A stretch of DNA of 64,000 nucleotides, taken from NCBI RefSeq assembly GCF_002854065.1, contig NZ_CP024147.1; one strand, written 5' to 3'. The position numbers and the translations under genes were made by a program. The stretch is from Escherichia coli (GTDB lineage: Bacteria > Pseudomonadota > Gammaproteobacteria > Enterobacterales > Enterobacteriaceae). The notes below the pieces were generated by a model, which ran no database searches, was not told the DNA's origin, and saw nothing but the letters and a program-made list of their open reading frames with translations. This document shows positions 12,717 to 13,213 of this stretch, piece by piece (the stretch's first letter is position 1; every line of letters starts with the position of its first letter).

Positions 12717-13213
12717 ATGGCTGATAGTTTCCAGAATGAAGTGCCAAAGGCACGTATTAATCTAAAACTTGACCTGCATACGGGGGGGCCAGCAAGAAAA
12801 CTGAGCTTCCCCTGAAATTACTGGTGGCGGGAGACTTCAGTAATGGGCAGGAGACTGCGCCGCTATCAGATCGCGGAAAAGTAAATCTGAACAAAAATAA
12901 TTTTGACGCAGTCCTCTCCGAATATTCCCCAAAAGTTAATCTGACCGTTAAAAACACACTTGCTGATGATGGTAGCGAAGACAACATCTCTCTGATATTC
13001 CAGAGCATGAAGGATTTCACCCCTGAGCAGGTTTCCCGGCAAATTCCTCAGCTGAAGGCAATGCTTTCTATGCGTAACCTGCTTCGCGATTTAAAAGCGA
13101 ACTTGCTGGACAATCAGGCTTTCCGAAAGGAACTGGAAAAAATTCTGCTCGACCCGGCATTAAGCGCAGAACTCAGAGCCGAACTTTCAGCCCTGGCCCC
13201 AAAACACTCCTAA
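12717..13213 (+). pseudogene. tssB: Type VI secretion sheath small subunit TssB (VipA), interrupted by a -1 frameshift in a poly-G tract
   Basis: Frame 0 gives MADSFQNEVPKARINLKLDLHTGG then stops at 12813; the adjacent frame continues ASKKTELPLKLLVAGDFSNGQ..., matching the TssB consensus; shift lies in the 7-G run at 12782-12788. Confidence 0.8.

Follow-up and report, generated by a model that had tools for sequence, protein, structure and literature searches.

A frameshifted tssB allele in a T6SS remnant of Escherichia coli is probably an inherited pseudogene that arose by slippage in a poly-G tract

We analysed a 64,000-nucleotide stretch of the Escherichia coli contig NZ_CP024147.1 (hereafter, the window), in which tssB, the gene for the small subunit of the T6SS sheath, is out of frame by one base within a run of G. 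Comparison with other assemblies of the same locus indicates that this allele is very probably a fixed, inherited pseudogene that arose by replication slippage in a dead T6SS. The initial annotation had offered two readings, an error in sequencing the homopolymer or slipped-strand variation at poly-G tracts, and had named a fixed pseudogene as the finding that would speak against both. It is this last outcome that the evidence below favours.

A run of G is the sole lesion in tssB

The lesion and the reading frames around it are as follows.

12717 to 13213, plus strand: tssB pseudogene, T6SS sheath small subunit, with a −1 frameshift; the restored product is the natural 165-aa TssB.
12782 to 12788, plus strand: G homopolymer; the in-frame allele has eight G (G8), in the codons ACG GGG GGG GCC for Thr-Gly-Gly-Ala.
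12717 to 12815, plus strand: 32-aa N-terminal stub ORF, the product of the frameshift; the exact peptide (P0016) occurs on 50 contigs.
12824 to 13213, plus strand: 129-aa downstream ORF with a GTG start, the remainder of TssB; it matches PF05591.

The homopolymer consists of exactly seven G (G7), as the initial annotation had counted. The frame that opens at the ATG at 12717 reads MADSFQNEVPKARINLKLDLHTGG and then continues out of frame to a TGA stop at 12813–12815, and a second frame is open from the G tract to 13213, with the translation ASKKTELPLKLLVAGDFS... Nowhere in the window does tssB have the uninterrupted full-length frame of an intact TssB/VipA. No Shine–Dalgarno sequence is visible upstream of the 129-aa ORF, the exact product of which was found on 196 contigs by exact look-up in a public collection. 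Adding one G to the tract yields a protein of 165 aa, in agreement with the claim that one base restores a full-length TssB. This protein has an exact match in the public collection, on 399 contigs, where it is named T6SS sheath small subunit (E. coli), and it scores 164.9 bits against the TIGR03358 profile, above the equivalog cutoff of 97.25. The gene lies immediately upstream of tssC in the T6SS operon, the position of a tssB gene. Because the restored protein is a natural TssB that passes TIGR03358, the G tract is the sole lesion within the gene. The earlier statement that tssB was inactivated only by this shift thus holds for the gene itself but not for the secretion system, since most of the other T6SS genes have been deleted. 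Near-identical tssB alleles are already known as frameshifted pseudogenes in RefSeq; PGAP annotates those in CUWW06 and 100416 as ‘frameshifted’.

The T6SS in the window is an irreversibly dead remnant

The following features lie downstream of tssB.

13246 to 14793, plus strand: tssC, intact (TIGR03355, 677.9 bits); annotated in CUWW06.
14812 to 16149, plus strand: tssK, intact (TIGR03353, 405.8 bits).
16146 to 17123, plus strand: fusion ORF of 325 aa, in which the first ~93 codons of tssL are in frame with a C-terminal fragment of JetD.
17484 to 17559, minus strand: tRNA-Phe (pheV), the island anchor, which adjoins the JetD-fragment side of the T6SS stump.

Together with the frameshifted tssB, the tssC and tssK genes and the ~93 tssL codons fused to the JetD fragment are all that the window has of a T6SS. 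PapRG-06-5 carries a complete cluster of ~33 kb, in the order tssB-C-K-L, an OmpA-family gene, hcp, clpV and vgrG, followed by a lipase effector with immunity genes, PAAR, tssM, tssA, tssF-G-J-E, VasL and the JetD fragment, a layout that we take to resemble the EAEC Sci-1 type. Relative to PapRG-06-5, the window is missing ~29 kb, from tagL and hcp through tssE, and it does not contain the core components of a functional T6SS (tssA-M, hcp, vgrG and clpV) as a set. The joint between tssL and JetD falls at ~16410–16425, on a short microhomology (CGAGAC..TAC). The fusion ORF scores 105.8 bits with the TssL profile, below the cutoff of 180; PGAP places two partial genes at this site; and the exact 325-aa fusion product was found on 145 contigs by exact look-up. 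The closest relative, CUWW06, has the same T6SS stump and is ~99.98% identical over 24.6 kb. A tssB locus of this kind is present in 8 of the 5,426 complete E. coli genomes. With ~29 kb of the T6SS lost, repair of tssB would restore nothing, and the system is irreversibly dead in the window genome whatever the state of tssB.

Three further observations concern the cluster. The deletion created an in-frame chimeric ORF (16146–17123) that joins the TssL N terminus to the JetD C terminus, with a predicted length of 325 aa. Internal deletions of this T6SS variant take at least six different forms across E. coli (tssL-JetD, tssB-VasL, tssC-tssF fragment, tssC-vgrG fragment, tssA'-yqgA and an IS1-associated loss), as seen from loci L005, L011, L017, L033/L038 and L151/L154 compared with L008. 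The 163-aa Hcp of the cluster is identical in L123, L129, L130 and others, including a Kosakonia chromosome, and such identity across quite different genomic contexts points to extreme conservation or recent exchange. Hcp was too conserved to serve as an anchor for sampling this locus, as six of the ten places obtained in this way came from other contexts, such as Kosakonia.

The G tract is a hotspot of length change

Natural assemblies carry tract alleles of G7, G8, G9 and G10. Every full-length tssB has G8, and the G7, G9 and G10 alleles all go with a broken gene. A neighbour-joining tree was computed from 43 non-redundant loci after masking of the tract. By Fitch parsimony, G8 is the root state and tract length changed at least nine times on this tree, which recombination may affect. 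Mixed tract lengths occur within four groups of 100%-identical 3.5-kb haplotypes, such that the tract is polymorphic among close relatives, as a contingency locus would be. Elsewhere in tssB-tssK (3.9 kb in 28 loci), we found no other frameshifting indel, and the single indel of any other kind was an in-frame insertion of 6 bp. This distribution shows that the tract is a real hotspot of length change across E. coli, with slippage as the probable mechanism.

The amino acids encoded at the tract are old, but the tract is not. In orthologues from ~70 other species, His-Thr-Gly-Gly-Ala is invariant and the G-runs range from two to seven, with none of eight. The long tract is therefore not one that has been kept across orthologues despite the synonymous alternatives, as is expected of a contingency locus. 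That ~70 species keep the same residues with shorter G-runs marks G8 as a synonymous-codon accident of the E. coli allele. Runs of G7 are not enriched in the window, with two observed against 4.9 expected from shuffled sequence. A mutator background was considered and set aside: within the window, to which this consideration was limited because the mismatch-repair genes lie outside it, mutY looks intact, and tssB-tssK has no other frameshifting indel.

The deletion probably preceded the frameshift

The data fit a history in which selection on tssB was lost before its reading frame was. In this rare T6SS of the pheV island, the intact tssB allele has an unusually long G8 run in its Thr-Gly-Gly-Ala codons. 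An ancestor of the lineage would then have undergone a ~29-kb deletion by illegitimate recombination, from around codon 93 of tssL to the JetD fragment, which would have killed the T6SS and lifted selection on tssB. The slippage-prone G8 tract would subsequently have lost one G, and the resulting G7 allele would have spread through the lineage.

We infer this order from members of two deletion clades that retain G8. L025 has the same tssL-JetD joint as the window and a 3.5–3.9-kb haplotype identical to that of L001, yet it has G8 and a 165-aa TssB; L025 is a metagenome-assembly scaffold, for which a reversion to G8 or a G8 called only in assembly is conceivable. A second, independent deletion clade has tssA truncated at 248 aa and followed directly by yqgA and speC, and has lost tssF, G, J and E; here, L145/L154 have G8, whereas L143/L151 and L016/L152 have G9. 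L147 has G10 on the 3.5-kb haplotype common to this clade, on a contig that ends before the distal part of the cluster. The presence of G8 members inside both deletion clades argues that the deletion preceded the slip.

The reverse order, in which loss of the tssB frame inactivated the system first and the 29-kb deletion came later, in a cluster already useless, is unlikely. It draws some support from the tract being by far the most mutable site of the locus and from L134, whose lineage may have acquired the frameshift before any other lesion. However, L025 combines the deletion joint with G8, as L145/L154 do with the joint of the second clade, and under the reverse order both would need a precise reversion in the absence of selection.

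The distribution of out-of-frame alleles was examined more widely across the loci. Two samples anchored on TssK gave 6 of 18 loci out of frame, some of them intact through vgrG. A reading of these as out-of-frame tracts in otherwise intact clusters was dropped, as the G9 clade lacks tssF, G, J and E and its G8 sibling lacks them likewise. Second lesions accompany out-of-frame alleles in the form of deletions (L005, L011 and L017), a split vgrG (L141), a split clpV (L144) and a truncated tssL (L014). The clusters that were read end to end all have G8 (L008, and L131/L149/L153, which are one contig), and five further G8 contigs have neighbours reported as mostly the same as those of L153. Nearly all out-of-frame alleles are thus in clusters with another lesion. 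L134/L019 (GCA_902841045.1) has G7, and direct reading as far as vgrG found no second lesion. Up to tssM, with the last 8 kb lying beyond, its neighbours are reported to be mostly those of its G8 sibling. As no second lesion was found there, the slip may have been the first or only hit in at least this one lineage.

A working switch is improbable

The evidence for slippage also bears on whether the tract is a contingency locus, that is, whether G8 is a selected, reversible ON/OFF switch of the T6SS sheath that the window happens to show in its OFF phase. We give this reading only a small chance of being correct. It is favoured by the spread of alleles from G7 to G10 among isolates with identical flanking haplotypes, by the confinement of all of the at least nine changes to the tract, and by the G7 allele of L134, for which no other lesion was found in the part read directly, through vgrG. 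It is opposed by the loss of 29 kb of core genes, which makes an ON state impossible in the window genome. Moreover, nearly all OFF alleles have another lesion, the G8 members of the two deletion clades indicate that the slip came after the deletion, and G8 is absent from the ~70 orthologues that encode the same amino acids. The literature that we searched contained no relevant report of a poly-G tract or switch, or of phase variation, in a T6SS gene.

A narrower version applies to strains with a complete cluster, in which G8 would be a recently arisen, reversible mutational switch that repeatedly generates T6SS-null subpopulations. The one candidate is the G7 allele of L134/L019. We consider this version, too, to be improbable; if it were true, lineages that had stayed OFF would have ended in the deletions described above. 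Slipped-strand variation, as initially proposed, is therefore retained as the probable origin of the G7 allele, given the G7–G10 series and the at least nine changes, but not as a working switch, given the ~29 kb of lost T6SS.

Independent assemblies argue against a sequencing error

We judged whether the G7 tract is an artefact by comparing independent assemblies in place of reads. Twelve other assemblies on the locus tree have both the deletion joint of the window and G7. They comprise two RefSeq complete genomes, an NCTC long-read assembly, draft genomes, ENA metagenome scaffolds and a Logan assembly, and come from different laboratories and platforms. One subclade (L006/L007, L020, L021 and L024) is marked by a C-to-T change just 5' of the tract, at window position 12781, which turns ACG into ATG (Thr to Met), and it still has G7. 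The G7 allele is therefore inherited. Two other runs of G in the window served for comparison.

26887 to 26893, plus strand: control G7 run within the intact yggN; apart from this run and that in tssB, the window has none of this length.
33311 to 33314, plus strand: G4 run in the Walker A box of yggR, compared with K-12 and strain 33E; intact alleles have G5.

The yggN run has the same length in all 12 E. coli genomes sampled across the species, a constancy that shows G7 runs to be stable where selection acts on them. The yggR pseudogene, which encodes a PilT-like ATPase and spans ~32934–33913, bears out the claim that its frameshift, like that of tssB, lies in a G-run, although the run is a short one and has lost one base (G5 to G4) relative to K-12 and 33E. 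Strain 100416 has the same G4 allele, and yggR is annotated as frameshifted in CUWW06. The yggR region has matches of at least 99% identity in 7 of 5,427 records, and the lineage is thus rare.

If the tract were a homopolymer sequencing or assembly error, the true genome would have an intact tssB with G8. Miscalled homopolymers do occur in long-read assemblies, and in the NCTC long-read assembly L023 (GCA_900449015.1) many core genes, speC, mltC and yqgA among them, are split in the manner typical of such miscalls; L023 still has G7, with no other indel in tssB-tssK. Against an error in the window stand the recurrence of G7 in the 12 other assemblies that share the deletion joint, one subclade of which is marked by its own SNP, the constant length of the intact yggN run, the yggR G4 allele common to 100416 and CUWW06, and the lack of any other indel in tssB-tssK of the window relative to its relatives. 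Taken together, the G7 tract across independent assemblies, the stable yggN run and the shared yggR allele make a sequencing error very unlikely, and we reject this part of the earlier proposal.

Programmed recoding, by which full-length TssB would still be made from the G7 allele, is extremely unlikely: a T6SS core gene provides a precedent in the A11 run of Citrobacter rodentium tssM (PMC4256274), and a −1 ribosomal slip on G_GGG_GGG would, judging from the codons, give exactly the wild-type Thr-Gly-Gly-Ala, but the tract is a G7 and not a long stretch of A or T, the downstream sequence has no RNA fold that would act as a stimulator (z = −0.46), the clusters read as complete have the in-frame G8, so that being out of frame is not a conserved state, and in the window genome the TssB product would have no machine to join. 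The −1 slip was accordingly discarded as a candidate, being functionless in the stump.

Other rearrangements in the window

The window contains three copies of IS1, at 1555–2323, 8651–9419 and 44508–45276, and those that start at 8651 and 44508 are mutually inverted. Compared with CUWW06, the 35-kb segment between them (9419–44508) is inverted relative to the glc side, a rearrangement that looks like an IS1-mediated inversion. At the IS1 boundary, a fimbrial usher-like gene of the TcfC family (9419–10058) has lost ~1.9 kb of its 5' end relative to CUWW06. A similarly shortened usher-like product, of 307 aa, is found in the NCTC assembly L015.

Discussion

We conclude that the frameshift in tssB is a case of neutral slippage decay in a dead cluster, and neither an artefact nor a working switch. 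Recurrent loss of the T6SS by internal deletion or IS insertion has been described in E. coli lineages (PMC10711316), and T6SS core genes of Shigella sonnei are inactivated by indels (PMC10924462). The window resembles these decaying islands in its tRNA linkage, in an internal deletion with a joint free of mobile elements, and in small indels in surviving core genes. It differs from them in that its T6SS is a different variant, found in 8 of 5,426 complete E. coli genomes, and in that one G8 tract accounts for every frameshifting indel in tssB-tssK.

Two systems in which homopolymers are used by the cell offer a contrast. In C. rodentium tssM1, transcriptional frameshifting occurs at an A11 run (Gueguen et al. 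2014, PMC4256274). As in tssB, a homopolymer breaks the reading frame of a T6SS core gene, but the tssM1 run is poly-A, conserved and needed for function, with two required protein forms (PMC4256274), whereas the tssB run is poly-G, not conserved, devoid of recoding signals and situated in a deleted cluster. Neisseria lgt and pgtA undergo phase variation by slipped-strand mispairing at poly-G tracts (PMC2192423, PMC2193922). The tssB tract is like these in being a coding poly-G tract that varies by one or two bases among close relatives and so switches the frame. The Neisseria tracts, however, exceed that of tssB in length, are kept by selection and are found in both states in loci that otherwise function; nearly all OFF states of tssB track dead clusters, and its tract is a synonymous-codon accident of one allele.

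For the window genome itself, the finding is of little importance, as the locus is a dead remnant. It provides a worked example of how independent assemblies can stand in for read pile-ups in distinguishing a homopolymer artefact from a real allele. It also shows that, where selection no longer acts, indel decay can come to centre on a single synonymous-codon accident such as G8, a lesson that is relevant to scoring the presence or absence of T6SS and to inferring phase variation from tract polymorphism alone.
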